Below, piece after piece: positions 13,762 through 29,875 of a stretch of 32,000 nucleotides of DNA. The first letter of the stretch is position 1. Every line of letters begins with the position of its first letter. A model generated the notes under the pieces. It was given only the letters and a program-made list of their open reading frames with translations. It was not told the DNA's origin and did no database searches. This DNA is from an uncultured archaeon (GTDB lineage Archaea > Iainarchaeota > Iainarchaeia > Iainarchaeales > 0-14-0-20-30-16). The translations under genes were made by a program, and so were the position numbers. The DNA lies in assembly GCA_964480435.1 (NCBI GenBank), contig CAYZSS010000001.1, positions 4,047-36,046 on the forward strand, given 5' to 3'.

Positions 13762-14667
13762 TTACAGCATACCCGCAAGCATTATTTGGGTAATATACTT
13801 TGCTAAAAAGAATATAATAAATCCAACAAACACAAATATCGGAAAGTACAATAATCCTTTTGTGGCATCTTTGTCTCGCATATAAGCAATAATAAAACTG
13901 GAAATTACTGACTCAAAGAAAAGATAAAACAATAAAACATTGTAAATTATTTCTCCAGATGCAATAGCATCAGCTATCTCTTTTGCGGATTCTACTATTC
14001 CTGTACTTGTGGAAACACTAACTAAAAAAGATATTAAAGTATTTACTAGTCCAAAAATTGCAGGAGCAATCATTGACCCAGCAGCAACAATAAATAATAC
14101 CTGCATAGTTGTTTTTGCTTTTCTTTCCTGTTGCATTTTATACAAGTTTCTTGCATCTTCTGAAATTTCATCAAGAACCTCAGATAACCCAGCCCCTGCC
14201 CTTACTGAATCTATTATTATAGTTATTACTTTTCTTATTAAACTTGAATCAACATTCTCATTTATTGATAATAAAGCATCTTCAAAATTTGCACCATCTT
14301 CTAATCTTCTCAATACTTTCTGTAGTTCTTTTGTTAGTGGGCCATAATCGATCAAGGTAATTTCCCTCAAAGCATATTCGTAAGTTCCACCGCTTTTTAG
14401 AATATCACTCATTTCCCTCAGAGCAGAAGGAAAGTGTTTCTCTATTAATTCTGTTCTTTTGTTTTCACGATAAATTGGAGCACTAATTATTATATCTCCA
14501 ACAGCAATTACTGCCACAGCAGCAAAAACATAATTATCAAATAAAAGGGCAACTAAAACACCAGCAACCAAACCAAATAAAATAGCAGTAACAATCCAAG
14601 CAACTGGTGACAATCTTATGTTATTTCTTTCCAATATTTTTTCATACTTCAATAACATATTGCTCAT
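13762..14667 (-). CDS. Type IV filament platform protein, single T2SSF domain (TadC-like)
   Basis: 301 aa. N-terminal TM, cytoplasmic T2SSF-like helical domain (FPSALREMSDILKSGGTYEYALREI...RLEDGANFEDAL), then C-terminal TMs. AGGTG lies upstream of the ATG. Confidence 0.75.
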   Translation of the reverse strand: MSNMLLKYEKILERNNIRLSPVAWIVTAILFGLVAGVLVALLFDNYVFAAVAVIAVGDIIISAPIYRENKRTELIEKHFPSALREMSDILKSGGTYEYALREITLIDYGPLTKELQKVLRRLEDGANFEDALLSINENVDSSLIRKVITIIIDSVRAGAGLSEVLDEISEDARNLYKMQQERKAKTTMQVLFIVAAGSMIAPAIFGLVNTLISFLVSVSTSTGIVESAKEIADAIASGEIIYNVLLFYLFFESVISSFIIAYMRDKDATKGLLYFPIFVFVGFIIFFLAKYITQIMLAGML

Positions 14668-14676
14668 AATCTACAC

Positions 14677-15783
14677 CTAATATGTGGGTCTAATTTTTCT
14701 AATATATAATAACAATCCAATTAAACACAGAGGAAGTAAAACAACATATAAAAATATTATTACTGGTGGAGTCAAAGGTAAAGATGAAAATAGAGACACC
14801 CCCCCACCCATAGGAATATTTCTTATGGTTCCAAGTATTGCAAGCATAACAGGAATAACAATTCCAACAAAAATATATATTACCCCAATGAAATTCATTT
14901 TTCCTGCAAATGATTCCAAAGTCAGCCTTATTTCGAAAGAAACATCTTTTGCAGTAGTATTCAGAATATCGGAAAGATTACCACCGGATTTTAAAGCTCT
15001 TAAAATGTGATTTATTGTATTTCTTAAAGAAAATGATTTTGTTCTGTATGCTAAATTTTTCAAAGCATCTTTAGTATCTGCTCCTTGTTCAACTTCATTT
15101 ATTACTCTTGCCATCTCTTCTGATAAATAACCATATTCTCCAACGGCAATAGTTTGCAAAACCCTATACAACCCTATCCCCGCTCTTAGTTCAGTTGCCA
15201 TATGTCTTAATGCAAAAGGAAGTTCGGCATCTATTTTTTTTCCCCTATTGTTAGCAACCATTACAGGGTACTTCAGGACAATAACTCCAGAAAAAAATAA
15301 AACTGCAAAAAATACAGCTATTAAGAGATACATCGATATATTAAACCAAAAAAACAAAACGCCTGCAGAAGCAGTAATAAATATTGTTGCCAAAACTGTA
15401 ATTACAGATGATATCGCCAAGTATTGTGATGTGCTGTAATTTATATTAGCGCTGTTTAACTCTTGGCTTACTTCATTACGCCCAGGAAAAACAGCTAAAA
15501 CCTTTTTTGCAAAAAAAGAAAAGAATGATGAAAATAAATTATAAATTTTTCCTACCAATCTTACATTATTGTTATAATCGGCAGCAAGATCTCTTGGTTT
15601 TTGAACTTCTATTTGGGCTCTTTTTCCTTCAGAAATTATAGACCTTAATTCTTGCAATCTTAATGAGTCTATTTCCGAATTTAATCCTTTTTCTTCATAT
15701 TTGTGCTTGATATTTGCGACAATAGACTCCACTTGATCCAAGTTGACCTTCTGTTGCATCTTGTCGTTTAAATCAAAACTCAT
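14677..15783 (-). CDS. Type IV filament platform protein, single T2SSF domain (TadB-like)
   Basis: 368 aa. T2SSF-like segment LPFALRHMATELRAGIGLYRVLQTI...VEQGADTKDALKNLA flanked by TM helices. Adjacent to the ATPase. Confidence 0.75.
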   Translation of the reverse strand: MSFDLNDKMQQKVNLDQVESIVANIKHKYEEKGLNSEIDSLRLQELRSIISEGKRAQIEVQKPRDLAADYNNNVRLVGKIYNLFSSFFSFFAKKVLAVFPGRNEVSQELNSANINYSTSQYLAISSVITVLATIFITASAGVLFFWFNISMYLLIAVFFAVLFFSGVIVLKYPVMVANNRGKKIDAELPFALRHMATELRAGIGLYRVLQTIAVGEYGYLSEEMARVINEVEQGADTKDALKNLAYRTKSFSLRNTINHILRALKSGGNLSDILNTTAKDVSFEIRLTLESFAGKMNFIGVIYIFVGIVIPVMLAILGTIRNIPMGGGVSLFSSLPLTPPVIIFLYVVLLPLCLIGLLLYIRKIRPTY

Positions 15784-15823
15784 TAAATCACTTCATTTTC
15801 ATATACAAAATAAAACATACTTT

Positions 15824-17476
15824 TCATTCTTCTTGCATTTCATAATATTTTTGAAGTTCCAAAGAAACTTCTTTTTGTGTTTTCAAATTTGAATCCAATA
15901 ATGTTTTTAGGAATACAGCCCTATTAGAAACTTCCTTTGTAACTTGTAACAGTGTCTTTCCTGAAAAAGTTGCAATTTTTTTCAAATATCTTGACGGTAC
16001 GGAAGTATCTTGTAGTTTATCTTCTTTAGGATCCCATTCAAATATTTTTTGTATTTGTATTTTATTTTCTAAAACACCACTTACTTCTGCGATTTCAGTA
16101 ATTCTTCTTATGGTACCTTTTCTTTTATCGTGTATTCTTTGCTGAACAAGAACAATATCCAATCCAGAAAGCATTACCTGAGGCACATCCATCGGTGGAG
16201 AAGTAACTCTTATTATTGTTTCTTGTGCTGAATTTGCGTGTACAGTCCCCATACAACCATCGTGCCCAGTATTCATGGCAGTAAATAAAGCCAATGCTTC
16301 TTTGTGTCTTACTTCACCAACAATTATTCTATCAGGTCTCATCCTCAAAGCATTTTTTGTTAAAATATCCAAGTCTATTTCTCCTGTACCTTCAATTCCA
16401 GGGGGTCTTGCCTCCAATCTTATCCAATGTGTTAAAGGAAGATTTAACTCAGCAGTGTCTTCAATAGTAATTATTCTTTCTCTTTGCGGAATAAAACTAG
16501 ACAACACATTCAAAGTAGTTGTTTTTCCTGAACCAGTACCACCCGCAATCAAAATATTTGCTGGTTTAACATCAAGACCATCAACACAAAGCCACAAAAA
16601 TGCAGCTGTCTGAAGATCAGTTGTGCCGTTGTTTATTAAATCTAAAATTGTATATGGCTCCTTTCTAAATTTTCTTATTGTAAGGGTAGATCCTGATACA
16701 GATACAGGGGGTATGGTTGCATTAATTCTTGAACCATCGCTTAATCTTGCATCAAGTAAAGGCTGAGAATAATCTATTCTTCTTCCAGTATATCTTGCAA
16801 TTCTAGAAATTAAGTCAATTATATCTTTATCTTCATAAAAAACAATATTAGTAGTCATTATTTCATATTCTCTATGAAATACATATACTGGTTTTTTTGG
16901 ACCAATGATCATAATTTCTTCCAGTTTATCATCTCGTAATAGAGCATCGATTATTCCAAAGCCAACCATTTCAGTTACTACTGCATTAGCATAAAAACTT
17001 TGTTTTCCTTCTGCAATTTTTAATTCAGGGGAAGAAGTAATAATTTCTAGCACCTTTTGGAAATAAACATTTCTTCTTTGCTGTTCATCCCTTATCTTAT
17101 AAGGAGCAATATTAATCAGCCTTGTTGCAGCCTCTTTAATTGTATTTATTATTATTTGTTCCCCACTTGATGCTTTAGGTACAGGAACTTCATAATGAAG
17201 TATAGGGTGGTTTTCTACTTTGTATATTTTTACAGTATCATATGAGGCAATTAATTTTTTATTTGCAGTTTCTAAATCTTCAAATTTGATAGGGGGAAGA
17301 GCATCAGGAGAAGGTATTTTTGAAGGGTTTTCTTTGCTATTGCCGGTAAAAAGGTTATTTTCTTTTGTTTCTTCTTTTTCTTTGCCACTTTCTTTTTCTT
17401 CTTTATTTTCTTTATTTTCTTTAGCCTCTTTACTCTCTTTATCACCTTTATTGAAAAGATTATCTACAAATACCAT
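15824..17476 (-). CDS. Type IV filament/secretion ATPase (FlaI/TadA/VirB11-like)
   Basis: Walker A GGTGSGKTT, Asp box RIITIEDTAEL, Walker B RPDRIIVGEVR and His box GHDGCMGTVHANS. ATG 17476 is preferred over track GTG 17485. Confidence 0.9.
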   Translation of the reverse strand: MVFVDNLFNKGDKESKEAKENKENKEEKESGKEKEETKENNLFTGNSKENPSKIPSPDALPPIKFEDLETANKKLIASYDTVKIYKVENHPILHYEVPVPKASSGEQIIINTIKEAATRLINIAPYKIRDEQQRRNVYFQKVLEIITSSPELKIAEGKQSFYANAVVTEMVGFGIIDALLRDDKLEEIMIIGPKKPVYVFHREYEIMTTNIVFYEDKDIIDLISRIARYTGRRIDYSQPLLDARLSDGSRINATIPPVSVSGSTLTIRKFRKEPYTILDLINNGTTDLQTAAFLWLCVDGLDVKPANILIAGGTGSGKTTTLNVLSSFIPQRERIITIEDTAELNLPLTHWIRLEARPPGIEGTGEIDLDILTKNALRMRPDRIIVGEVRHKEALALFTAMNTGHDGCMGTVHANSAQETIIRVTSPPMDVPQVMLSGLDIVLVQQRIHDKRKGTIRRITEIAEVSGVLENKIQIQKIFEWDPKEDKLQDTSVPSRYLKKIATFSGKTLLQVTKEVSNRAVFLKTLLDSNLKTQKEVSLELQKYYEMQEE

Positions 17477-17584
17477 TTCGCCCACCCAATTATAATTAGA
17501 TACAACATAACTAAATCATTATAAATAACTTATATTAATATATAAATGTTATAGTTGTTGTATTAATATAACGGAGGTAATACT
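17477..17584. promoter_or_regulatory. Divergent promoter region (ATPase operon and 17585 gene)
   Basis: TATA-like TTATAAATAA and ATATATAAAT. Two copies of palindromic TATTAATATA (17533-17542 and 17561-17570). SD GGAGGT precedes 17585. Confidence 0.35.
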
Positions 17585-20121: not shown

Positions 20122-22296
20122 ATGGAATATGCAAGAGTAGATGAAATTATTATTAAAGTAAAAGAAGCCGACCCAAGTTTATTAGGCAGAAACATTATCA
20201 CCTTAGATGGTTCAAGCAAAGAAAGATTAAGATTATCTGCAGGGGATTTTGTTTCTATAAAAGGACAGAAAGAAACCGTTGCACAAGTATGGCCAACTCG
20301 TTCCATTGATGAACCCGAGGCATTTATTAGAATGGATAGCCTGATAAGACAAAATGCAAAAGTAGGCATTGGAGATACTGTACTAATTAAAAAAGCAGTT
20401 GTAAAAGAAGGACACAAAATAATTCTAGCACCAACACAAATTATAAAATTACCTCCCAATAATAACTTTGCAAGAATTGCAAAAAAACAATACTTAGGAC
20501 GAGCTTTAAGCGCAGGGGACAGAATACATTTGTCTTTATTTGGAAACCCAATGCAATATTTTGTTACAAAAACTAACCCCCCTGGGTTTGTATCAGTAAG
20601 TGATTCTACTATTTTTGAACTTCTTGAAACACCCATTACTCTGGAAAATGCCGAAATTTCAAAAATAGGATATAACAGAATAGGAGGTTTAGGAAAACAA
20701 TTAAATAAAGTAAGAGAAATGATTGAACTTCCGTTAAAGCACCCAGAAATATTTGAAAAAATGGGGGTTAGCCCGCCAAAAGGAATTTTATTTTTTGGAC
20801 CACCTGGAACAGGAAAAACTTTATTAGCCAGGGCAATTGCTAATGAAACAAATGCAAATTTTACTATAATAAACGGACCAGAAATTATGAGTAAATATGT
20901 TGGTGGTGCTGAAGAAAAACTAAGAACAATTTTTAAAGAAGCAGAGGAAAATGCCCCCGCAATTATTTTTATTGATGAGATAGATGCAATTGCAACAAAT
21001 AGAGACAATTCAGAAAGTGAAACAGGCCGAAGAGTTGTTGGACAATTACTTAGTTTAATGGATGGATTGCAAGCAAGAGGAGATATAATTGTTATTGCTG
21101 CAACAAATAGAGCTAACTCTATAGATCCCGCATTAAGAAGACCAGGAAGGTTTGATAGAGAACTACATATTAATGCACCAGACAAAGATGGTAGAAGAGA
21201 AATATTTGATATCCATACAGCTGGGGTTCCTCTTGCAAAGGATGTTAATTTAGATACTTTGGCAAAAAAAACTCACGGATTTGTTGGAGCAGATATTGCT
21301 GCCCTAATTAAAGAATCTGCAATGCAAGCTATTAGGCGAATACTTCCAAAAATCGATATGGAAGAAGAAACAATACCAAAAGAAATTTTAGACAGCTTAG
21401 AAATAATCATGCAAGATTGTGATAATGCTCTGCTTGAAGTACACCCTTCCGCATTAAGAGAAGTAATGATTGAAGTGCCAAATGTATCTTGGGAAGATAT
21501 TGGTGGCTTAGAAGAAGTCAAAGAACAATTAAAAAAAGGTGTTGAATGGCCTTTACAACATTCAGAATCATTCAGCAAAATGGGTATTAGCCCAATAAAA
21601 GGGATATTATTATATGGCCCTCCTGGAACGGGAAAAACAATGCTAGCAAAAGCAGTTGCAAGAAAAAGCGAAGCAAATTTTATTAGCGTAAGAGGTCCAG
21701 AATTATTTAGTAAATGGGTTGGAGATAGTGAAAAAGCACTAAGAGAAATATTTACAAAAGCAAGACAAACAAGCCCTTGTGTGATATTTTTTGATGAAAT
21801 AGATGCCTTAGCCCCAAGAAGAGACCAAATAGCGGATGGTGGGGTAAGTGCAAGACTAGTTAACCAACTTCTTGTTGAGTTAGATGGTCTGTCCGAGCTT
21901 AAAGGAGTTGTACTAATTGCTGCAACAAATAGACCGGATATTATTGATCCTGCTTTATTAAGACCAGGAAGATTTGATAATATTATTTTTGTTCCACCAC
22001 CTGATTTAGAATCAAGAAGAGAAATAATAAAAAAGGTTTCAAAAGATATGCCTTTATCAAAAGAAGCTGAAGAATTTTTAGATACTCTTGCAGAAAAAAT
22101 AGACACCTATTCAGGGGCAGACATAAATTCATTACTAAGAGAATCCGCGCTAATTTCTTTGGACAGATCAAAGATGAAAGACACCAAGGTCGGAGTAGAA
22201 GACATTAAAGCAGGGCTAAAAAAAATACGGCCTAGTCTTACAAAAGAAGTAGTAAATGAATATAAAAAATTTGAGAAAAATATAAATCTCAATTAA
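20122..22296 (+). CDS. cdc48: CDC48/VCP-like AAA+ ATPase (N domain plus D1 plus D2)
   Basis: 724 aa. Two AAA modules with GPPGTGKTLLARAIA / IIFIDEIDA and GPPGTGKTMLAKAVA / VIFFDEIDA. Each is followed by ATNRxxxIDPALxRPGRFD. Confidence 0.95.
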   Translation: MEYARVDEIIIKVKEADPSLLGRNIITLDGSSKERLRLSAGDFVSIKGQKETVAQVWPTRSIDEPEAFIRMDSLIRQNAKVGIGDTVLIKKAVVKEGHKIILAPTQIIKLPPNNNFARIAKKQYLGRALSAGDRIHLSLFGNPMQYFVTKTNPPGFVSVSDSTIFELLETPITLENAEISKIGYNRIGGLGKQLNKVREMIELPLKHPEIFEKMGVSPPKGILFFGPPGTGKTLLARAIANETNANFTIINGPEIMSKYVGGAEEKLRTIFKEAEENAPAIIFIDEIDAIATNRDNSESETGRRVVGQLLSLMDGLQARGDIIVIAATNRANSIDPALRRPGRFDRELHINAPDKDGRREIFDIHTAGVPLAKDVNLDTLAKKTHGFVGADIAALIKESAMQAIRRILPKIDMEEETIPKEILDSLEIIMQDCDNALLEVHPSALREVMIEVPNVSWEDIGGLEEVKEQLKKGVEWPLQHSESFSKMGISPIKGILLYGPPGTGKTMLAKAVARKSEANFISVRGPELFSKWVGDSEKALREIFTKARQTSPCVIFFDEIDALAPRRDQIADGGVSARLVNQLLVELDGLSELKGVVLIAATNRPDIIDPALLRPGRFDNIIFVPPPDLESRREIIKKVSKDMPLSKEAEEFLDTLAEKIDTYSGADINSLLRESALISLDRSKMKDTKVGVEDIKAGLKKIRPSLTKEVVNEYKKFEKNINLN

Positions 22297-22660
22297 AGAA
22301 AAGAGCAACATCTTTTCCTATTTTTTCTTTTATTCTGTCTTGCATTTCTTGGATTTGCGATTCAGTAAAGTCTTTCTCTGCAGATAATTTTAGACTTATA
22401 CTTAAAACAGCGTCCTGAACCTCCAAGTCTATATCTTGTATAGTTAATAAAATATTATTTTGAACAAAGTAAGTTTCGACTTCTGTTTTTATAATGCCTA
22501 TATCAGAAATATCTTTGGTACTTCCAAAAGTAAAATAATAAAGGGTGCCAGCAAGCAAGATAATAATTATTGTCACAAAAAGAATTTCAAAACTTGATTG
22601 CCCTTTTTGATTTTTTTTATTATTTGCTTTATTCAATAACTTCTGCATATGTTTTCCCAT
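22289..22660 (-). CDS. Class-III-signal (type IV pilin-like) protein, 123 aa
   Basis: N-terminus ...NKKNQKG|QSSFEILFVTIIIILLAGTLYYF: basic leader, G at -1, Q at +1, E at +5, then a hydrophobic helix. Start is ambiguous (22660 or 22648). Its 3' end overlaps the cdc48 stop by 8 nt. Confidence 0.6.
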   Translation of the reverse strand: MGKHMQKLLNKANNKKNQKGQSSFEILFVTIIIILLAGTLYYFTFGSTKDISDIGIIKTEVETYFVQNNILLTIQDIDLEVQDAVLSISLKLSAEKDFTESQIQEMQDRIKEKIGKDVALFFN

Positions 22661-23081
22661 CTTGTTCTTTAAATATACTCACCAGATATTCTTTTTTTCC
22701 TAATAAAGTCATACCATCCGTATTTGCTAGCCCTGACAAATCAAAAGATTTTATGCAAAGCCCATCAGCAGAACAGTATGCATTTTGTGGAGGATCTTTT
22801 AATGTTATTTTGTAAGTTAATGAATCTTGTAAAATGGTGATATTTGCATCTTCAGGGATAAATACAATTATTTGGGTTTTTGCAATAGACTCACTCAAAG
22901 AAACATATTCTATTGCTTCTTTTAAATTTTTTGCAGAGCCATCAATATATGCCAAACTAGAAATATCGCTTATAGAATCTTTTGCAGAATCAGAGAACGG
23001 GATTACTATTGTTTGCAATAAAATAAGAATTACCACAACAATCAAAATAAACTCAATGCTTAACTGACCTTTATTTCTCAT
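22629..23081 (-). CDS. Class-III-signal (type IV pilin-like) protein, 150 aa
   Basis: MRNKG|QLSIEFILIVVVILILL. ATGA overlap with the peptidase stop. GGTGGG SD. One Cys pair (CSADGLC). Confidence 0.7.
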   Translation of the reverse strand: MRNKGQLSIEFILIVVVILILLQTIVIPFSDSAKDSISDISSLAYIDGSAKNLKEAIEYVSLSESIAKTQIIVFIPEDANITILQDSLTYKITLKDPPQNAYCSADGLCIKSFDLSGLANTDGMTLLGKKEYLVSIFKEQDGKTYAEVIE

Positions 23082-24157
23082 ATTAACCCACCAACTAATA
23101 ACAATAAAACATAACTTAAAAACAAAGCAGGAGTTAAAGGGACACTTTGTTTAACATAAATCTCATTTGGAATTATTTTTTCCTTATGCAATTTCTTAAG
23201 CAAAGTAATATCTTCAGGATATAATCCACCCGGCCTTGCAAGAATTACATAATCGTAATTTTTGTCCTTCATTAAATCTAACTTCGATTGCAATATATCT
23301 TTATTTTTGAAATATTTAAAGATATCTTTTATTTTTGGCTTGTAAACTTGCTTGTTATCTTTAATATAAATCGATTCATAAAGTATTTCTCCCTCTATCA
23401 GACCCGATATCTTTTTTGCATTGGCAAAACCCCTTGATCTAACAAAACTAAACAATTTGACAAAAGAAAAGAAAATAACAGAAATTAGAACATAAACAAT
23501 AGCAGTAAAGATGTTTAGAGGATTAAGATACAAGGTAATTGCAAAAACTATTAGAGATATTGGCAACAAAATCTTCCAAGTTATTTTAAAAAGCAAAAAA
23601 GATAATAATGCGAATATTGTTGGAATCCCCAATAAACCAAATATAAAATATAAACCCACCAAAGTTATTGCAACAAAAAAGTAGCTTGGTAGCTTTTTTA
23701 CTAACTCCTGAAAAATTATTTTATAGTACTGATTAGCAATAATTCGTTTTATTGCTAAAAAGAAACCAAGTGGAAAAATAATAAATACTGATAGAATGAA
23801 GAAAGCCAGAATAAAATAGTAATTTATTCCTGATGAAAAAAATACTGAAAAATCTTGGAGAGGTATAGAAAAAGCCACCCCTGAAATTATTTTTGCATCC
23901 CCTCCTGCAAAAACAGAAAAATACCATAAGAGGTAACAAACAAAAAAAGTGCCAAATCCAATAATAAAAGGCCAGAATAAAAATTTGCCAACATAAATGC
24001 TTTTTGCTATCCAAAATAATATTCCAAACCCCATTAATCCAAAAGAAAGATAATTAGATATCTCCCTAGTCTTTAGATCAGTGTATGCCCCTATTGCCAG
24101 GGCAACAAAAACAACCACATAGTTAAGATAAGAAAAAATAAACTCTAAAAAATACAT
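23078..24157 (-). CDS. A24-family aspartyl prepilin/preflagellin peptidase with C-terminal extension
   Basis: Two catalytic Asp contexts about 60 aa apart: AYTDLKTREISN and VFAGGDAKIISG. Polytopic. An extra roughly 110-aa soluble segment plus a terminal TM at the C-terminus. Confidence 0.85.
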   Translation of the reverse strand: MYFLEFIFSYLNYVVVFVALAIGAYTDLKTREISNYLSFGLMGFGILFWIAKSIYVGKFLFWPFIIGFGTFFVCYLLWYFSVFAGGDAKIISGVAFSIPLQDFSVFFSSGINYYFILAFFILSVFIIFPLGFFLAIKRIIANQYYKIIFQELVKKLPSYFFVAITLVGLYFIFGLLGIPTIFALLSFLLFKITWKILLPISLIVFAITLYLNPLNIFTAIVYVLISVIFFSFVKLFSFVRSRGFANAKKISGLIEGEILYESIYIKDNKQVYKPKIKDIFKYFKNKDILQSKLDLMKDKNYDYVILARPGGLYPEDITLLKKLHKEKIIPNEIYVKQSVPLTPALFLSYVLLLLVGGLI

Positions 24158-24187: not shown

Positions 24188-24379
24188 CTATTCGAAAGTC
24201 TTCTTAAAAAACTCAAGTTTATAATTTTCTATCCTTGTTTGGGCAACTTGCCCAATTTTTCTTAATTGCATCACAAAAAGAGTAACAGCAATAACAAGCA
24301 AAACAGAGAAAACGATAGTGAGAAGGTACTCAAATGAGATTTGCCCTCTTTTATCTTTTACTGCTTTACTTACTAACAT
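24188..24379 (-). CDS. Small class-III-signal pilin, 63 aa
   Basis: MLVSKAVKDKRG|QISFEYLLTIVFSVLLVIAVTLFV. SD AGTGATC upstream. Confidence 0.75.
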   Translation of the reverse strand: MLVSKAVKDKRGQISFEYLLTIVFSVLLVIAVTLFVMQLRKIGQVAQTRIENYKLEFFKKTFE

Positions 24380-24389
24380 AAGATCACTT

Positions 24390-24665
24390 TTATTCTACAA
24401 CACTGCCATCTAGATTAAAGTCTTTTGTTGCTTTATTTATTTGGTCATCATATACTTGCTGAGTATCGTTAATATCATCTTTTGCTGCTGAAGATGTTTT
24501 TATTAATACCCCTATTACAACTGCGGCAATAAGAATTGCTGCACCAATGATTAAAAGATATTCAAGGGCACCTTGTCCTTTTTTTTCTTTTAAAAAAATG
24601 GACCCTGTTGGGGTTTTGTTTGAAAACCCACAACTTGGTGCCTTAGTTTCTTTTAAGAAAGACAT
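24390..24665 (-). CDS. Small class-III-signal pilin with long (31 aa) leader, 91 aa
   Basis: ...SIFLKEKKG|QGALEYLLIIGAAILIAAVVIGVLI. ATG 24665 is supported by GAGTGATA 4 nt upstream. Confidence 0.7.
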   Translation of the reverse strand: MSFLKETKAPSCGFSNKTPTGSIFLKEKKGQGALEYLLIIGAAILIAAVVIGVLIKTSSAAKDDINDTQQVYDDQINKATKDFNLDGSVVE

Positions 24666-24671
24666 ATCTTA

Positions 24672-24869
24672 TCACTCTGCTATAACGTGATTTAAGTCAT
24701 CTAGTTGATTTGATGCTGTATTCATGGATTCGTTTACATCAGTCTTTGCTGACCTTGCTGAGCTTATTAGAACTGCAATTACAATTGCTGCAATTAGTAC
24801 TGCTGCTCCTATAATCAAAATATACTCTAAAGCACCCTGTGCTTTCTTATCTTTCACAAATTTGAACAT
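24672..24869 (-). CDS. Small class-III-signal pilin (candidate major pilin), 65 aa
   Basis: MFKFVKDKKA|QGALEYILIIGAAVLIAAIVIAVLI. ATG 24869 has GGAGGT 7 nt upstream. The upstream extension in the track (to 24893) lacks an SD. Confidence 0.85.
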   Translation of the reverse strand: MFKFVKDKKAQGALEYILIIGAAVLIAAIVIAVLISSARSAKTDVNESMNTASNQLDDLNHVIAE

Positions 24870-24870
24870 C

Positions 24871-25047
24871 TTAATTACCTCCAACCTGTTCACTTACTTG
24901 ATCTATTAAATCTGCGCCTTGTTGCTGTGGTTTAGCAAGGCTTCTTTTTAAATATACTCCTACTAGCGTTGCAATAACAATAACTATGACTACTCCAATA
25001 AGGAGTTCTATGCTTGCTTGTCCTTTTTTCTCTTTTATGAAGGTCAT
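24871..25047 (-). CDS. Small class-III-signal pilin, 58 aa
   Basis: MTFIKEKKG|QASIELLIGVVIVIVIATLVGVYL. This is the C-terminal part of the 161-aa track ORF. AGGGTG lies upstream of ATG 25047. Confidence 0.8.
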   Translation of the reverse strand: MTFIKEKKGQASIELLIGVVIVIVIATLVGVYLKRSLAKPQQQGADLIDQVSEQVGGN

Positions 25048-25135
25048 TACAACACCCTTTATGATATATACATTATACTTATTTTTATACGTTTCTATCT
25101 TGAATATAATAATAAATACTGGTTTGGGTGACATT
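25048..25135. promoter_or_regulatory. Divergent promoter region (pilin operon and 25136 gene)
   Basis: AT-rich with several TATA-like boxes: TTTATGATATATAC, TTATTTTTATAC, GAATATAATAATAAAT. Sits between divergent starts. Confidence 0.35.
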
Positions 25136-25951
25136 TTGGGTGCAAAACTTCTTGATCTCATTAAACGAAATAGAACTACACAAATCACATTGAGATTGCC
25201 TGATTTTAGAGTTAAATCAGTGAGAAAAGGGAAAGGACTTGATATTAAAATAGAGAAAATATTTGGAAGAATACACGAAATTAACTTAGAAAAAGCCAAT
25301 TTGACTAGTTTTTCAGAAGTACTTACAAAAATCCTTGATAGAATTGAGACAAACATTCAACATGTAAATAACTTAGAGCAAGTTGCCAGAGTATTAGCAG
25401 ATGTTTTCGTAAAGCTAGAGCCGCTAGAAACAAAAGGGCTAGAAGCGCGAAGAAGAATCTTTAACTTCCTTATTGTTGCCGGGTTTTCTAAAGAAAGAAA
25501 AGACGAATTTTCCAGAAAATTTGTGAAATTAAACTGGGTTAGCGGATTAGCCTCAGAGCAGAATGAAAAGCTTGCTGCCCCTGAGCTAATTATGGTGGCT
25601 TTATCAAGAGAAACTAGTGACATAAAAATCGACCAAAAAATATTTAGTGCAGGAGTTAAAAATTTACCAGAAGTGGCCAGAAAATGGGCAAAAGACGTAA
25701 ACTCAATAACTAATTTGGGGGCGGTAGTGGCAGGAGCAATTAGATTTTACAAATCCGAAATCAGTAAAGATAAGATAGAAAATAGAGCTGCTGTTGCGGG
25801 AATATATAATTTTTTATTTGCTGTTGCTGGTTCTTCAGAAGATGACGCAATAAGGCAAACAGCAAGGTCTTTTTTGAAGAAAAACTGGCTGCCAAAATTA
25901 GTTGATCCAGATATTTTCAGAAAACATATTGGGAAAATAGCACAAGGTTAA
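25136..25951 (+). CDS. Hypothetical soluble protein with internal duplication
   Basis: Two related roughly 90-aa halves: RRRIFNFLIVAGFSKERKDEFSRKFVKLNWVSGL and VAGIYNFLFAVAGSSEDDAIRQTARSFLKKNWLPKL. TTG 25136 was chosen because GGGTGA lies 4 nt upstream. The start is uncertain. Confidence 0.45.
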   Translation: MGAKLLDLIKRNRTTQITLRLPDFRVKSVRKGKGLDIKIEKIFGRIHEINLEKANLTSFSEVLTKILDRIETNIQHVNNLEQVARVLADVFVKLEPLETKGLEARRRIFNFLIVAGFSKERKDEFSRKFVKLNWVSGLASEQNEKLAAPELIMVALSRETSDIKIDQKIFSAGVKNLPEVARKWAKDVNSITNLGAVVAGAIRFYKSEISKDKIENRAAVAGIYNFLFAVAGSSEDDAIRQTARSFLKKNWLPKLVDPDIFRKHIGKIAQG

Positions 25952-26359: not shown

Positions 26360-27682
26360 ATGTTCTTAGATAAGTATGAGCCAAATAGTTTTGATAATTT
26401 TGTAGGGAACAGAGGGGCTAAAGAAGAAATGGCTTCTTGGGCAAATAATTTTGACAATGAAAAAAAGCCCCTGCTAATTGTTGGTCCAACTGGAACAGGA
26501 AAGAGTACCGCAGCAAGAATATTAGCAAACGTAAATAATTGGCAAACCAATGAAATAAGTGCTGATGAACAAAGAGATAAAGAATCACTAGAAAGACGGA
26601 TGGAGCTTTTTGTTCAATCAATTTCTTTTTTTAATAAACGAAACTTATTCATATTTGAAGACCTTGATTTTTTATCTTCAAAAGACAAGGGAGCAATCAC
26701 AAAAATTTCAGAAATAGTAAAGATTGCAAAAAATCCGATAATATTTACTGCCACAGATATTTATTCAAATCAAAAAATTAAAGAAATATCTGCCCAATGC
26801 AGAGTAGTAAATTTTAAAAGATTAACCTATTTAGAGATATCAAAAAAATTGATGCAAATTGCCCAAGAAGAAGATATTTATTCAAATAAAGAAGCATTAG
26901 ATATAATTGCAAAAAATGCAAAGGGCGACCTAAGAGCAGCAATATTAGATTTAGAAGCATTGGCTGATATAGGAGTTACAGAAAAAACCTTGTCTACCCT
27001 TGGAGAAAGAGAGAGAGAGGACAGCATTTTTACAACGCTTATGAATATACAGATGTCAAAAAACCTTTCTGAAGCAAAGAAAATACAGGACTCCTGCAAT
27101 ATTGACTATGACATGCAATTTGCATGGGTGAATGAAAATGTTTCTGCAATTTATAATCAGCCTGAATTAACAAAAGCCTATGATTTAATCTCATATGCTG
27201 ATTTAATGAGAAACAACATTTACAAAAGACAAAACTGGGTTTTTTTAAAATATTACTTAATGACTGGAATTGTTCTTCCACTTATGCTTCCAAATAAAAA
27301 ATTTGTAAAATATTCTTTCCCAACTTTTATTTCAAAAATGTCAAAAGAGAAAAGTACTTTTGCCAAAAACAAGGTACTTGCTAAACTTGTTCAAAAAATT
27401 GTAAGAGGCGGATCAAAAAAGATTGTTTCTGAGATATATTTTTACAACAACTATTTTGAGACTGCGCCAGAAGGAGTAATAGAATCAAGCTATACTACAG
27501 CAGAAATAGAACAAATCGAAAAGCTTTTAAAAATAAAAATTAAAAGAATGAAAAAAGAAATACCTTTGGGCGATGAGAACAAGACAACAACAAAAAATAA
27601 ACCAGAACCCAAAGAAAAAGAATTAACCACTACAAAGATCAAAGAACCTAAAAACAAAATAAAACAAACCACTTTATTTTAA
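26360..27682 (+). CDS. rfcL: Replication factor C large subunit
   Basis: FLDKYEPNSFDNFVGN, Walker A VGPTGTGKST and an AAA+ clamp-loader layout. K/E-rich C-terminal linker ending in the PIP-like KQTTLF. Confidence 0.85.
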   Translation: MFLDKYEPNSFDNFVGNRGAKEEMASWANNFDNEKKPLLIVGPTGTGKSTAARILANVNNWQTNEISADEQRDKESLERRMELFVQSISFFNKRNLFIFEDLDFLSSKDKGAITKISEIVKIAKNPIIFTATDIYSNQKIKEISAQCRVVNFKRLTYLEISKKLMQIAQEEDIYSNKEALDIIAKNAKGDLRAAILDLEALADIGVTEKTLSTLGEREREDSIFTTLMNIQMSKNLSEAKKIQDSCNIDYDMQFAWVNENVSAIYNQPELTKAYDLISYADLMRNNIYKRQNWVFLKYYLMTGIVLPLMLPNKKFVKYSFPTFISKMSKEKSTFAKNKVLAKLVQKIVRGGSKKIVSEIYFYNNYFETAPEGVIESSYTTAEIEQIEKLLKIKIKRMKKEIPLGDENKTTTKNKPEPKEKELTTTKIKEPKNKIKQTTLF

Positions 27683-27697: not shown

Positions 27698-28225
27698 TTA
27701 TTTTTGCCCTTCTTTTTCAGAAATTTGAGAGTCAACATCTGTTATAACATAATCACAAACATCTGTGCCGTCAGGTGGCGGAGAAGTAGCCAGATTTGAA
27801 TTAATTATTTTTTTAAAAGTAAACGCAGAATAATAGGAAAAATCAAGATCTCCTTTTTTGTAATTATTATTTATATCCAAAACAACACTTACTGTTTTCA
27901 CAGGGTCTATTGCTAATGTTATGTTGTTTATTTTTACATCACATAAAAAAGAAGAATCATTAAAGTCATCACAAAAACTACTTTGTTTTGATTCAAAATC
28001 TATTTTAAAAGCATTAAAATCAAAATCGCAGGATTCATAAGATTCAAAGGATTCCGCAATATACCTCGTAACAATATTATTCAAATACAAATATTGCATC
28101 TCATTTTTTGATATAAATTCAGGATAGTAATTAGGGGTTTGCGCGTTATGGGCCACATTAAATAAAAGAAGAGAAATTCCCACCAATACAATAATTACAC
28201 TAAAAAAACCACTTTTACTTTTCAT
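27698..28225 (-). CDS. Pilin-like protein (weak class-III-signal), 175 aa
   Basis: MKSKSG|FFSVIIVLVGISLLLF, with no acidic residue near +5. Four Cys. Last gene of a four-gene run that is overlapping or closely spaced. Track start 28234 is a GTG; ATG 28225 is preferred. Confidence 0.5.
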   Translation of the reverse strand: MKSKSGFFSVIIVLVGISLLLFNVAHNAQTPNYYPEFISKNEMQYLYLNNIVTRYIAESFESYESCDFDFNAFKIDFESKQSSFCDDFNDSSFLCDVKINNITLAIDPVKTVSVVLDINNNYKKGDLDFSYYSAFTFKKIINSNLATSPPPDGTDVCDYVITDVDSQISEKEGQK

Positions 28226-28481
28226 AATAACCACTATAACAAAATTCCTTAATTACTGCACCGGAATTTATTGTTTCTTTAATTGTATTATAACACAAAT
28301 AACTATTGGAGTCTACACCCTTACTAGGTTTATTTAAATAATATGACACAGTTTTATCAGATGAAAAATAAGATAAATCAAAATTTGGTTTTTTTAATTC
28401 ATTAACAGGTACAGAAAAAATTGTTATTAGCAGACCAGCAATAAAAATTAAATCAAATGTAAAAATAAAACCCTTATTCAT
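28215..28481 (-). CDS. Class-III-signal pilin-like protein, 88 aa
   Basis: MNKG|FIFTFDLIFIAGLLITIFSV. Two Cys. 4-nt overlap with the upstream gene. Confidence 0.6.
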   Translation of the reverse strand: MNKGFIFTFDLIFIAGLLITIFSVPVNELKKPNFDLSYFSSDKTVSYYLNKPSKGVDSNSYLCYNTIKETINSGAVIKEFCYSGYYEK

Positions 28482-28975
28482 TTGTATCCAGCCCCAATTA
28501 TTATTTCTTTTTCTTCTAAATCACAACTAGCTAAACCCATAACACAGTCATAGTAATTAGCTTTTTTTACTGGCCCTGAGTGAGCAATAATTTTTAATTT
28601 CTTTTCTGCCCCTTTTACGACTAAGTCAGATTCAAAGGTTATTCCTGAAATAGATACTGCTATATTTTCAGGCAGCCCTAGTTTTGATTTGTTAAATTTA
28701 GTCAAGTCAATACAGTAGGCAATATACTTAATAAAATTTCCATCTTCGTTTACAAGTTCGCAAGAGAAGTTTTCATTTAGTGCAATTTTATTTTCTATTA
28801 AATCAATATAACTTGTTAGTTCAATATTTGATTTATTTATATTATACTGATGTAAAGAATACGCAAAACCCTGATATAAAATCCCAAGAAGAAAGACAAA
28901 AAGAATTGTTGCAAAAACCAGATCAAGGGAGAATATTATCCCTTTTTGATTCTTCTTTCCGTTCTTAACCTGCAT
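28478..28975 (-). CDS. Class-III-signal pilin-like protein, 165 aa
   Basis: MQVKNGKKNQKG|IIFSLDLVFATILFVFLLGIL. Four Cys. ATG 28975 follows GTGAT plus 4 nt; the track start 28984 is a GTG inside that SD. Confidence 0.6.
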   Translation of the reverse strand: MQVKNGKKNQKGIIFSLDLVFATILFVFLLGILYQGFAYSLHQYNINKSNIELTSYIDLIENKIALNENFSCELVNEDGNFIKYIAYCIDLTKFNKSKLGLPENIAVSISGITFESDLVVKGAEKKLKIIAHSGPVKKANYYDCVMGLASCDLEEKEIIIGAGYK

Positions 28976-28980
28976 AAACA

Positions 28981-29325
28981 TCACTTGTTAAAATATACTG
29001 CTGCATTACAAAAATAATTGTCTAATTCACCCACTGCAACTAATTTACTTTGCTTATTTTCCAAGTCCGACACAAAATAATTTCCATCCTGATAGTAAAA
29101 ACTTTTCTCCTCGCACTCTAAATTATATTTTAAATCATAGCCTGCGGGAAGATCCAAAGCAGCAAACAGGGGGCGCATATTGCTGGCTGAACCTGACAAA
29201 TCCGAATCCAACCTTAAAATATCTGTTTTCTCAAGGATAGTATCTCCAAAAACAAAGAACACAGAGAAAAGGATGGCGAATATAATTATTGCCAATAAAA
29301 AATCCAGTGATATCTGCCCTTTCAT
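28981..29325 (-). CDS. Class-III-signal pilin-like protein, 114 aa
   Basis: MKG|QISLDFLLAIIIFAILFSVFFVF, with Q at +1 and D at +5. Two Cys. First gene of the block. Confidence 0.7.
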   Translation of the reverse strand: MKGQISLDFLLAIIIFAILFSVFFVFGDTILEKTDILRLDSDLSGSASNMRPLFAALDLPAGYDLKYNLECEEKSFYYQDGNYFVSDLENKQSKLVAVGELDNYFCNAAVYFNK

Positions 29326-29395
29326 ATTATCGCCTTAATTACATATAAATAACAGGGCTTTAATTAAAAAACTTTGTTATTTTCTTATTTATAAC
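29326..29395. promoter_or_regulatory. Divergent promoter region (pilin-like operon and archaeosortase-like gene)
   Basis: 70-bp AT-rich spacer with TATA-like ACATATAAATAA and TTTAATTAAAAAA. No SD precedes 29396, so that transcript may be leaderless. Confidence 0.3.
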
Positions 29396-29875
29396 ATGGA
29401 CAAAAGAATAATCCTATTTATTTTTATTGGTTTATTAGTAAACCTTACTTTCTTTTTTGTAATTGACTCGATTTATACCCCGTTCCCCCAATTAGTAGGA
29501 AAAAGCATATCTTTAATTACCAATTTTAATTTTGATTATAACCCAAACCCCGCTTATTACACCCCTGATTACGATTTAGAAATAAACAACCTTTGCACTG
29601 GTTTTGCAACTTTCTTCTTATTAGCAAGCATTATAATAATACAAAAATCATTAAGACTTACAAAAAATAGTTGGAAAAACATAGCCATTTTTTTGCCTTT
29701 GTCATTTATACTGCTTTATTTAATAAATATCCTGCGATTATTAGTAATTTTATATTTTGGAAATTCGCAAACCATCACAGAAACCTTGCATATTATTGGT
29801 TGGATGATGATGGGTGTAACAGTATTTTTGCTGTGGATGTTTTTTGAAAAAAAGAATAAAAATATCTCTTGTTAG
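29396..29875 (+). CDS. Miniature exosortase/archaeosortase-family protein (putative)
   Basis: 159 aa polytopic protein. Family-like order and spacing of candidate catalytic residues: NNLCTGFATFFLL (Cys), 47 aa later LINILRLLVILY (Arg), 18 aa later TLHIIGWMMMG (His). Confidence 0.6.
   Translation: MDKRIILFIFIGLLVNLTFFFVIDSIYTPFPQLVGKSISLITNFNFDYNPNPAYYTPDYDLEINNLCTGFATFFLLASIIIIQKSLRLTKNSWKNIAIFLPLSFILLYLINILRLLVILYFGNSQTITETLHIIGWMMMGVTVFLLWMFFEKKNKNISC

Follow-up and report, generated by a model that had tools for sequence, protein, structure and literature searches.

The 32,000-nt stretch of archaeal DNA analyzed here (hereafter, the window; ~31% GC, with all coordinates referring to it as a whole) contains a cassette of four tightly packed genes, g1 to g4, that fill positions 27698-29325 on the minus strand and, judging from their sequences, very likely encode processed pilin-like proteins. 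By analogy with bacterial filaments, we lean toward the reading that the four proteins form a minor-pilin complex priming or capping a pilus, that is, an initiation or tip complex, a reading to which we give a somewhat better than even chance. The cassette is found in the same gene order in distant lineages, and its g2 product has a confidently predicted pilin-type architecture. The archaeal housekeeping genes in the window include those for RFC, Cdc48, DNA ligase, proteasome, aCPSF and SecDF, and its closest named relative is a metagenome-assembled genome (MAG) of "Candidatus ainarchaeum sp.," a DPANN archaeon.

The four genes and their protein families

The cassette consists of the following genes (here and below, a slash marks the predicted cleavage site):

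28981-29325, minus strand: g1, position-1 pilin-like protein, 114 aa, MKG/QISLDFLL, Cys 71 and 106
28478-28975, minus strand: g2, position-2 pilin-like protein, 165 aa from ATG, NQKG/IIFSLDLVF, Cys 72, 88, 144 and 151
28215-28481, minus strand: g3, position-3 small pilin-like protein, 88 aa, MNKG/FIFTFDL, Cys 63 and 81, near the C-terminus
27698-28225, minus strand: g4, position-4 pilin-like protein, 175 aa from ATG, KSKSG/FFSVIIV, Cys 66, 85, 95 and 157

An earlier, sequence-only reading of this DNA described the four genes as an operon with 5-nt spacing at the first junction, followed by overlaps of 4 and 11 nt, and the coordinates of the open reading frames (ORFs) bear this out: g1 and g2 lie 5 nt apart, g2 and g3 share 4 nt (ATGA), and g3 and g4 share 11 nt. 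The N-termini that it had singled out (MKG/QISLDF, NQKG/IIFSLDL, MNKG/FIFTFDL and KSKSG/FFSVIIV) are present in the sequence, as are the even numbers of cysteines that it counted in the globular parts (2, 4, 2 and 4), all of which fall outside the N-terminal hydrophobic segment. The start sites of g2 and g4 are ambiguous, given the conserved stretches "M[IM]FM" and "VVIM" in the orthologues: g2 could alternatively start at ATG 28981 (167 aa, as in the public gene call P0001) or GTG 28984, and g4 at GTG 28234. Upstream of g1, the 70-nt A/T-rich divergent intergenic region 29326-29395, which separates it from a gene of the archaeosortase family, contains a TATA-like A/T-rich element, TTATTTATAT, at about 29343-29352, ~22 nt upstream of the g1 ATG (read by eye), and is the probable promoter of a nearly leaderless operon transcript.

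In all four proteins and in all their orthologues, a [KR]-G-type site is followed by ~20 uncharged hydrophobic residues; g4 of the window has S at -2, where the orthologues have K or R (KG or RG), and contains no acidic residue in the hydrophobic segment. Elsewhere in the window, this pattern is nearly restricted to pilin genes. We scanned all 485 start-to-stop candidates that reach 50 aa or more in the six frames of the window for [KRS][GA]/, then Q or a hydrophobic residue, with 22 uncharged hydrophobic residues in a row; nine matched, namely, g1 to g4, four pilin genes near a prepilin peptidase gene and one false match inside the polytopic peptidase itself. Cysteine makes up 2.2% of the cassette proteins vs 0.68% of the products of 30 other genes in the window (binomial p = 4e-4), and the conservation of the cysteines, which the sequence-only reading had proposed to examine, proved to be complete in the orthologues from close relatives, with every Cys kept at just 43-68% identity. 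These features are more than chance. The same level of identity in the cassette proteins, compared with 65-85% for the neighboring SecD, RFC and peptidase, amounts to a faster divergence, as expected of surface proteins.

Word-indexed searches retrieved close relatives alone, with identities of 45-68% (8 proteins in the case of g2, 5 in that of g4), as did a metagenome scan with g4; a scan of GTDB species representatives with the g2 profile yielded the "Ca. ainarchaeum" MAG as the sole match, and the back-translated patterns used in these two scans can reach near relatives alone. An exhaustive hidden Markov model search with the g2 profile recovered 93 clusters (at the 50% identity level) at E<=1e-3, 17 of them at E<=1e-10, nearly all consisting of proteins of 145-210 aa and most matched over the full length; a third homologue search, with a 75-sequence g2 profile, returned 19 proteins. 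In the 75-sequence alignment of the g2 family, with a mean column identity of 26%, the motif [KR]-G/Q-x-F-S-L-D and the four cysteines are nearly invariant: position -2 is K or R in 65/73 sequences and -1 is G or A in 73/73, +1 is Q in 51/75 (Ile in g2 of the window), +4 is S in 66/75, and +6 is D in 74/75, with Cys72, 88, 144 and 151 present in 75, 73, 70 and 70 of the 75 proteins, respectively. The cysteine count is even in 72 of the 75, and the leaders are uniformly short, at 3-12 residues. The alignment thus points to a family with a strongly constrained cleavage-type N-terminus and paired cysteines. The g1 orthologues similarly share [KR]KG/QISLD and both cysteines, following a leader of 4-5 aa (3 aa in g1 of the window).

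Comparison of profiles across clades with hhalign supports orthology of g2 (94-97% probability) and g3 (92% and 89%), whereas g1 aligns at 91% over its N-terminal half alone and g4 reaches only 23-26%. A MAFFT alignment of the position-4 proteins nevertheless brings together three cysteines and, at the C-terminus, the motif C-x-[YV]-x-I-[TK]-D. Searches across clades with the head domains alone (phmmer) gave mostly compositional noise, except for g2. The cross-clade orthology of positions 1 and 4 therefore draws on position, size, motif, cysteine pattern and a plausible MAFFT alignment; for g4, it is weakly supported at the sequence level. Within the cassette, the first 50 residues of g3 align with the g2 helix at 88% probability, and the first 40-60 residues of g1 and g3 do so at 66-88%.

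The cassette in other lineages

Six related loci (L001/L003, L002 and L004 to L007) share the gene order of the window, with an archaeosortase-like gene, the divergent g1-g2-g3-g4 and a convergent gene for the RFC large subunit; in L001, L002 and L004, a pilin-peptidase cluster lies 2.6 kb from the cassette. Distant relatives of g2, located on contigs of 26-28% GC, occupy the second position among four small genes with the same layout (L008/L009, L010/L011, L012/L013, L014, L015 and L016), such that the same order, sizes and overlaps are found in more than nine loci from at least three divergent clades. In these distant loci, position 1 encodes a protein of 125-152 aa with K[GA]/Q-x-S-[IL]-[ED], position 2 one of 160-171 aa with four cysteines, and position 4 one of 133-168 aa with [KR]G/[FL]F and 4-5 cysteines (expanded in L010/L011), whereas the position-3 protein, of 85-101 aa with KG/[FY]-I-[FIL]-[ST], has exactly two cysteines near the C-terminus in all nine cassettes compared. 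The distant loci keep the 4-nt g2/g3 overlap, apart from L010, where the two genes overlap by 8 nt, and L016, where a gap of 4 nt separates them; a g3/g4 overlap of 8-23 nt is present in every one. No position-4 protein in any cassette carries an acidic residue at +5/+6 (D is at +3 in L010 and L015), and in clade B the position-3 proteins lack one there as well. The recurrence of the cassette in the same order in distant lineages strengthens the original suggestion that the four genes form a functional set, and the sequence comparisons indicate that this set is older than the lineage of the window.

The genes next to the distant cassettes encode mostly housekeeping proteins, namely, aEF-1beta, ABCE1/RLI, the RFC large subunit and PCNA in L008, L010, L014 and L015. 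In L012/L013, the neighboring genes are those for TctA and a JAB protein; an A24 peptidase and two pilins are encoded 2.2 kb upstream of the cassette, and a T2SSE ATPase 7 kb downstream. Judging from the archaeal housekeeping genes and the 26-28% GC, the distant loci probably come from DPANN archaea. The cassette is thus a core-genome module, mobile-free and passed on vertically, that has no physical tie to the pilus machinery. The archaeosortase neighbor, by contrast, is specific to the clade of the window.

The position-4 protein of L010/L011 differs from the others in size, with 674 aa (L010 9347-11371; L011 2890-4914). Its N-terminal ~200 residues align with other position-4 proteins, and the remaining ~500 aa contain GLUG motifs (PF07581, 1e-15) along with near-threshold matches to the Fn3-associated (Fn3_assoc) and CHB_HEX_C_1 domains, so that the protein joins a pilin-like N-terminus to an adhesin-like extracellular module.

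Two further observations concern these loci. The housekeeping flanks in L008, L010, L014 and L015, and the gene for the RFC large subunit in the window, represent an unusually stable neighborhood for surface-protein genes. The AMP phosphorylase encoded at L015 9363-10892, on an archaeal-type contig, shares at least 90% identity with a protein labeled "Candidatus Cloacimonadota bacterium" (NCBI); this match probably reflects a mis-binned contig in that MAG.

Structural models and the pilus genes of the window

Single chains of g2 and g4 were modeled with AlphaFold2 from alignments of 75 and 5 sequences, respectively. For g2 (predicted local distance difference test score [pLDDT] 91.9, predicted template modeling score [pTM] 0.75), the model consists of a single helix spanning residues 10-65, or residues 1-53 of the predicted mature form, and then a beta-sheet head with five strands and two short helices; Cys72 and Cys88 are located in the first hairpin, and Cys144 and Cys151 in the C-terminal helix-strand region. 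In length, this helix agrees with the canonical alpha-1 helix known from type IV pilins, and helix and head together make a pilin architecture. The g4 model (pLDDT 80.8) includes helices at 7-24, 35-62 and 70-79, followed by a five-stranded sheet with long strands. The combination of an N-terminal helix and a globular head, by which the sequence-only reading stood or fell, is thus confidently predicted for g2, whereas g4 is similar except that its helix is interrupted. Taken together, the models predict a pilin-like architecture in g2 and, less cleanly, in g4, with heads that are not recognizably those of any solved pilin.

The window encodes a complete, Epd/Tad-like type IV pilus set, which, together with the divergent neighbor of the cassette, comprises the following genes:

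15824-17485, minus strand: T2SSE-family ATPase (PF00437 at 7e-49)
14677-15783, minus strand: T2SSF-family platform protein (PF00482; 8e-21 and 5e-17 for the two platform genes)
13762-14667, minus strand: second T2SSF-family platform protein (PF00482, as above)
23078-24157, minus strand: A24 prepilin (class III signal) peptidase, its C-terminal domain of the archaeal type (PF01478 at 1.3e-8, PF06819 at 4.6e-9)
24188-25047, minus strand: four tandem Flp-sized pilin paralogues, each ~58-65 aa long and with the motif K[GA]/Q-x-[SA]-x-E (PF04021 and motif scan)
22289-23081, minus strand: two larger pilin-like genes directly downstream of the peptidase gene (150 aa, NKG/QLSIEF; 123 aa, QKG/QSSFEI)
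29396-29875, plus strand: exosortase/archaeosortase-family protein, 159 aa (TIGR04178, 38.4 bits vs a cut-off of 23; PF09721, 35.2 vs 25.7)

The ATPase and the two platform genes form a pilus assembly core at 13762-17485 on the minus strand. The A24 peptidase, with its Asp-containing motifs YTDLK and GGDAK, is presumably the processing enzyme of g1 to g4. The pilins encoded beside it share the KG/Q site type with the cassette proteins; the Flp-sized ones, three of which match PF04021 (3.5e-8, 3.7e-8 and 7e-4) and orthologues of which occur in L001 and L002, are presumably the major pilins. As in the Epd pilus of Methanococcus maripaludis, one ATPase and two platform genes are combined with a dedicated A24 peptidase and tiny, headless Flp-like major pilins, and on these grounds the gene content corresponds to "system 1" (Epd-like) of the archaeal type IV filaments (TFF), reported from methanogens, Thermococcales and DPANN (bioRxiv 10.64898/2026.04.22.720090). 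The two larger pilin-like genes are kept after the peptidase gene in L001, L002, L004 and L012; the 150-aa product has a sub-threshold match to TadF (E = 0.11), and its N-terminal 60 residues resemble the position-1 proteins of clade-B cassettes (hhalign 83%). Among the Flp-sized pilin genes, the first ATG of ORF 24390-24665 yields 91 aa, and the orthologues point to a later start and a product of ~64 aa.

On either side of the cassette, the gene for the RFC large subunit (26360-27682) is convergent to it and ends 15 nt past g4, and the archaeosortase-family gene, the product of which shows weak ArtE/XrtK similarity, diverges from g1 across 70 nt. An ORF of ~300 aa at ~25061-25951 on the plus strand (inside ORF 24986-25951) has no Pfam match and includes an internal repeat, IFNFLIVAGFSKERKDEFSRKFVKLNW and IYNFLFAVAGSSEDDAIRQTARSFLKKNW. 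These ~0.85 kb are missing from the equivalent spot, between the pilin cluster and an 89/90-aa gene, in L001 and L002, and the ORF may be a lineage-specific insertion. L001, a "Ca. ainarchaeum" MAG, differs in other details as well: its pilin-peptidase cluster precedes genes for proteins of 795 and >1038 aa (L001 16405-20453; DUF4215, faint CARDB) that are not in the window, where Cdc48 takes that place, and a PilA-like protein of 164 aa, the C-terminal domain of which is rich in Cys, is encoded upstream of SecF (L001 4449-4943).

A candidate initiation or tip complex and the alternatives

In the reading we favor, each of g1 to g4 would encode a type IV pilin-like protein of its own kind that bears a class III signal peptide, and the translationally coupled operon would yield the four in fixed proportion. 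The N-terminal hydrophobic helix would insert each protein into the membrane, the A24 peptidase of the locus would cut behind the conserved Gly and so remove the short, basic leader, and one or two disulfides would lock each globular head. Through their helices, the four proteins would then join into a low-copy, equimolar heteromeric complex on the ATPase/platform machine, which would start polymerization of the small Flp-like major pilins and end up at the distal end of the fiber, with g4 as the most apical subunit, presenting a binding surface. From the features described above we infer that the leaders are cleaved, that a complex forms and that it acts in initiation or at the tip, and the apical placement of g4 is suggested by the lack of a conserved acidic residue in its helix and by the adhesin-like fusion in one lineage.

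Several lines of evidence are consistent with this scheme. The pilin-like nature of the products, already proposed from the letters of the DNA, is supported by the conserved K/R at -2, G/A at -1 and acidic residue at +5/+6, by the peptidase and the KG/Q pilins in the window, and by the g2 model; the cognate peptidase, the secretion ATPase and the platform proteins are all encoded in the window. Pilins dependent on the peptidase EppA (DUF361-type) have a leader of 5-13 aa ending in Gly, a Gln at +1 and a Glu at +5 (PMC3875500), and g1 agrees with this signature in part, with Q at +1 and a leader that, as in Epd pilins, ends in Gly, but with D at +5 and a leader length of 3 aa. In bacteria, syntenic sets of minor pilins form tip initiation complexes, the apical member of which lacks the Glu at +5; the PilI-J-K(-H)/GspH-K and Tad CpaJ-K-L sets are characterized by invariant gene order, an apical member without Glu5 and an attached large adhesin (bioRxiv 10.64898/2026.02.14.705861). 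Among archaea, the Epd minor pilins of M. maripaludis are essential for piliation (PMC3875500; PMC4858521), and "at least 5 minor pilins" have been predicted for that system (PMC4858521).

Other results weigh against this reading. Pfam and NCBIfam scans of the four proteins gave sub-threshold noise alone (e.g., the N-terminus of DUF7287 at E = 0.17), and against PF04021 (Class_IIIsignal), PF01917 and the NCBIfam pilin and archaellin models there was no match even at E<=1; the 75 members of the g2 family likewise have no match to PF04021 at E<=0.01 nor to any other Pfam family. Profile searches of PDB sequences found nothing, and Foldseek comparison of the g2 and g4 models with the PDB produced no match at E<=1e-3, the best pilin being 7o5y at E = 0.42. 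Thus, the remote homology to minor pilins and GspH-K-like folds that the sequence-only reading had proposed to look for was not found by any of these methods. (The top Foldseek matches, NTF2/cystatin-like proteins and the adenovirus fiber head, were discarded as not meaningful, none reaching E<=1e-3.) The g4 helix is interrupted at residues 25-34 by a low-confidence, Pro-containing loop, and g2 to g4 depart from the Gln at +1 and Glu at +5 of EppA-type pilins, with g3 and g4 starting with Phe and the acidic residue being at +6 or absent. Finally, the expected co-conservation with the pilus blocks holds in part: the cassette is found near the peptidase gene in close relatives and L012, but most distant lineages carry it among housekeeping genes, and no pilus gene was detected within 10 kb of the cassette in the clade-B loci.

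Such a separation of the cassette from the Flp-like pilin cluster in most lineages would also suit a separate short fiber or pseudopilus that uses the same ATPase and platform, with g2 most likely polymerizing, and serves a non-adhesive purpose, such as uptake of DNA or other substrates, in parallel to ComGC-GG. The g2 protein is the best-conserved member of the cassette and has the canonical head-plus-helix architecture, and Makarova et al. have argued that the ATPase/TadC pairs of archaea can work with several sets of pilins (PMC4858521). However, one copy of each gene, fixed order and translational coupling point to equimolar production rather than to a ratio of major to minor subunits, and the four Flp-sized pilins by the peptidase are the more obvious major subunits. 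The ComGD-ComGG proteins of monoderm competence pili resemble the cassette in being four minor pilins in a row in a single-membrane organism, but show no homology to it, and the cassette lies outside the ATPase/platform operon, with no DNA-uptake genes seen nearby. We therefore regard a separate pseudopilus as unlikely, while still giving it real weight.

The missing class III signal and pilin family matches, the lack of a fold match to pilins and the residues at +1 to +3 of g2 to g4, atypical for EppA-type pilins, could be read as signs that the four proteins are not fiber subunits but uncleaved signal-anchor (N-in) extracellular proteins in a fixed envelope complex with an anchoring, alignment or stator-like role, as ArlF/ArlG or PilN/PilO. 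The short hydrophobic helix of g4 (18 residues), followed by a loop and a separate helix, and the housekeeping neighborhood, suitable for a constitutive envelope component, would fit such a role. Similarly to the stator-like ArlF/ArlG of the archaellum, with their archaellin-like N-terminus, the cassette proteins are small archaeal proteins that combine an N-terminal hydrophobic helix with a beta-rich extracellular domain and come in pairs or sets; unlike ArlF/ArlG, which to our knowledge are not processed, they have no NCBIfam ArlG/ArlF match and display a strict [KR]-G cleavage-type motif. Uncleaved anchors leave unexplained the invariant Gly/Ala at -1 and the near-invariant K/R at -2 and Asp at +6 across 75 proteins of 26% identity, as well as the uniformly short leaders of 3-12 residues. 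Moreover, the bona fide pilins beside the peptidase carry the same KG/ motif, and the g2 helix equals the canonical pilin alpha-1 in length. We consider this explanation improbable.

That the cassette proteins work with the divergent exosortase/archaeosortase-family gene, as substrates or cofactors of surface protein sorting, is suggested by the 70-nt divergent promoter region that this gene (TIGR04178, 38.4 bits) shares with g1 and by the retention of the pairing in L001, L002, L006 and L007, but we rejected this link as highly improbable: the loci sharing the pairing are all close relatives, which may simply have inherited this order, no distant cassette has the pairing, which is thus clade-specific, the upstream neighbors in those cassettes encode aEF-1beta or a JAB protein, and the C-termini of g1 to g4 are hydrophilic (...VYFNK, ...GAGYK, ...GYYEK and ...EKEGQK, respectively), without the tripartite sorting signal of motif, hydrophobic helix and basic tail.

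Returning to the initiation or tip complex, the cassette can be compared with the known sets of minor pilins. The Epd system includes several larger class III signal peptide proteins as essential, low-abundance pilins (EpdA, EpdB, EpdC and an additional minor pilin; PMC3875500; PMC4858521). Unlike the Epd pilins, with EpdA-C compared here by description rather than by sequence, g1 to g4 have no Pfam or NCBIfam match, and g2 to g4 lack the +1 Gln/+5 Glu combination; furthermore, their genes make up a fixed cassette of four that stands apart, in most cases at a distance from the machinery genes, and the proteins have conserved cysteine pairs. [quoted passage not shown] It may also share a member without the conserved acidic residue, the candidate apical subunit at position 4, although position 3 lacks this residue too in clade B. 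A large adhesin can be linked to the apical subunit, PilC/PilY1 in bacteria and the fused GLUG domain in L010. In contrast, searches of Pfam, NCBIfam and the PDB (by profile and by Foldseek) yielded no sequence or structural similarity to GspH-K/PilH-K; the sizes differ (g3 has just 88 aa, and GspK ~330 aa), g2 has its acidic residue at +6, that of g3 is variable, and the archaeal host has no outer membrane. Accordingly, of the analogy with these bacterial sets drawn in the sequence-only reading, the conserved co-transcribed order stands and a match in sequence or fold to known minor pilins does not, leaving the specific analogy conjectural. The Tad (T4c) proteins TadE/TadF/TadG (CpaJ/CpaK/CpaL) are, like the cassette, minor pilins that occur alongside Flp-sized major pilins, and their apical member can be large (CpaL, ~600 aa, compared with 674 aa for the L010 position-4 protein), but g1 to g4 match neither the TadE-like family (PF07811) nor TadF (PF16964), and the cassette has four genes where Tad has two or three. 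Given these mismatches, the cassette cannot be filed under GspH-K/PilH-K, TadE-G or PF04021.

Minor-pilin initiation and tip complexes are established for bacterial type IV pili, T2SS, Com and, recently, Tad filaments, whereas for archaeal pili we know only of lists of "predicted minor pilins" and of no tip or initiation complex that has been defined. Predicted minor-pilin sets in archaeal loci are therefore already known in general terms. Our literature search found no description of a conserved, machinery-independent four-gene cassette in DPANN-type archaea, nor of its four unannotated families, of a pilin-type model whose head is unmatched or of a fourth subunit fused to an adhesin. For the annotation of DPANN genomes, the gain is four protein families without Pfam coverage, in a compact, conserved candidate cassette with one confident pilin-type model and another member fused to an adhesin-like domain.

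The Tad system is thought to derive from an archaeal Epd-like system. The cassette belongs to this presumably ancestral system and could therefore serve to test whether templated minor-pilin initiation predates the split between bacteria and archaea. A bolder proposal, which we put forward tentatively and consider possible but doubtful, is that four minor pilins, unrecognizably diverged or independently evolved, constitute an archaeal tip initiation complex that licenses Epd/Tad-like pili across many DPANN lineages, with g4 as the apical adaptor for grafted host-binding adhesin modules. If so, the four-subunit initiation complex would be either ancestral to all type IV filaments or convergent in archaea. 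In DPANN archaea, pili are the prime suspects for host attachment, and the cassette would then be the part of the organelle by which these ultrasmall archaea seize their hosts.

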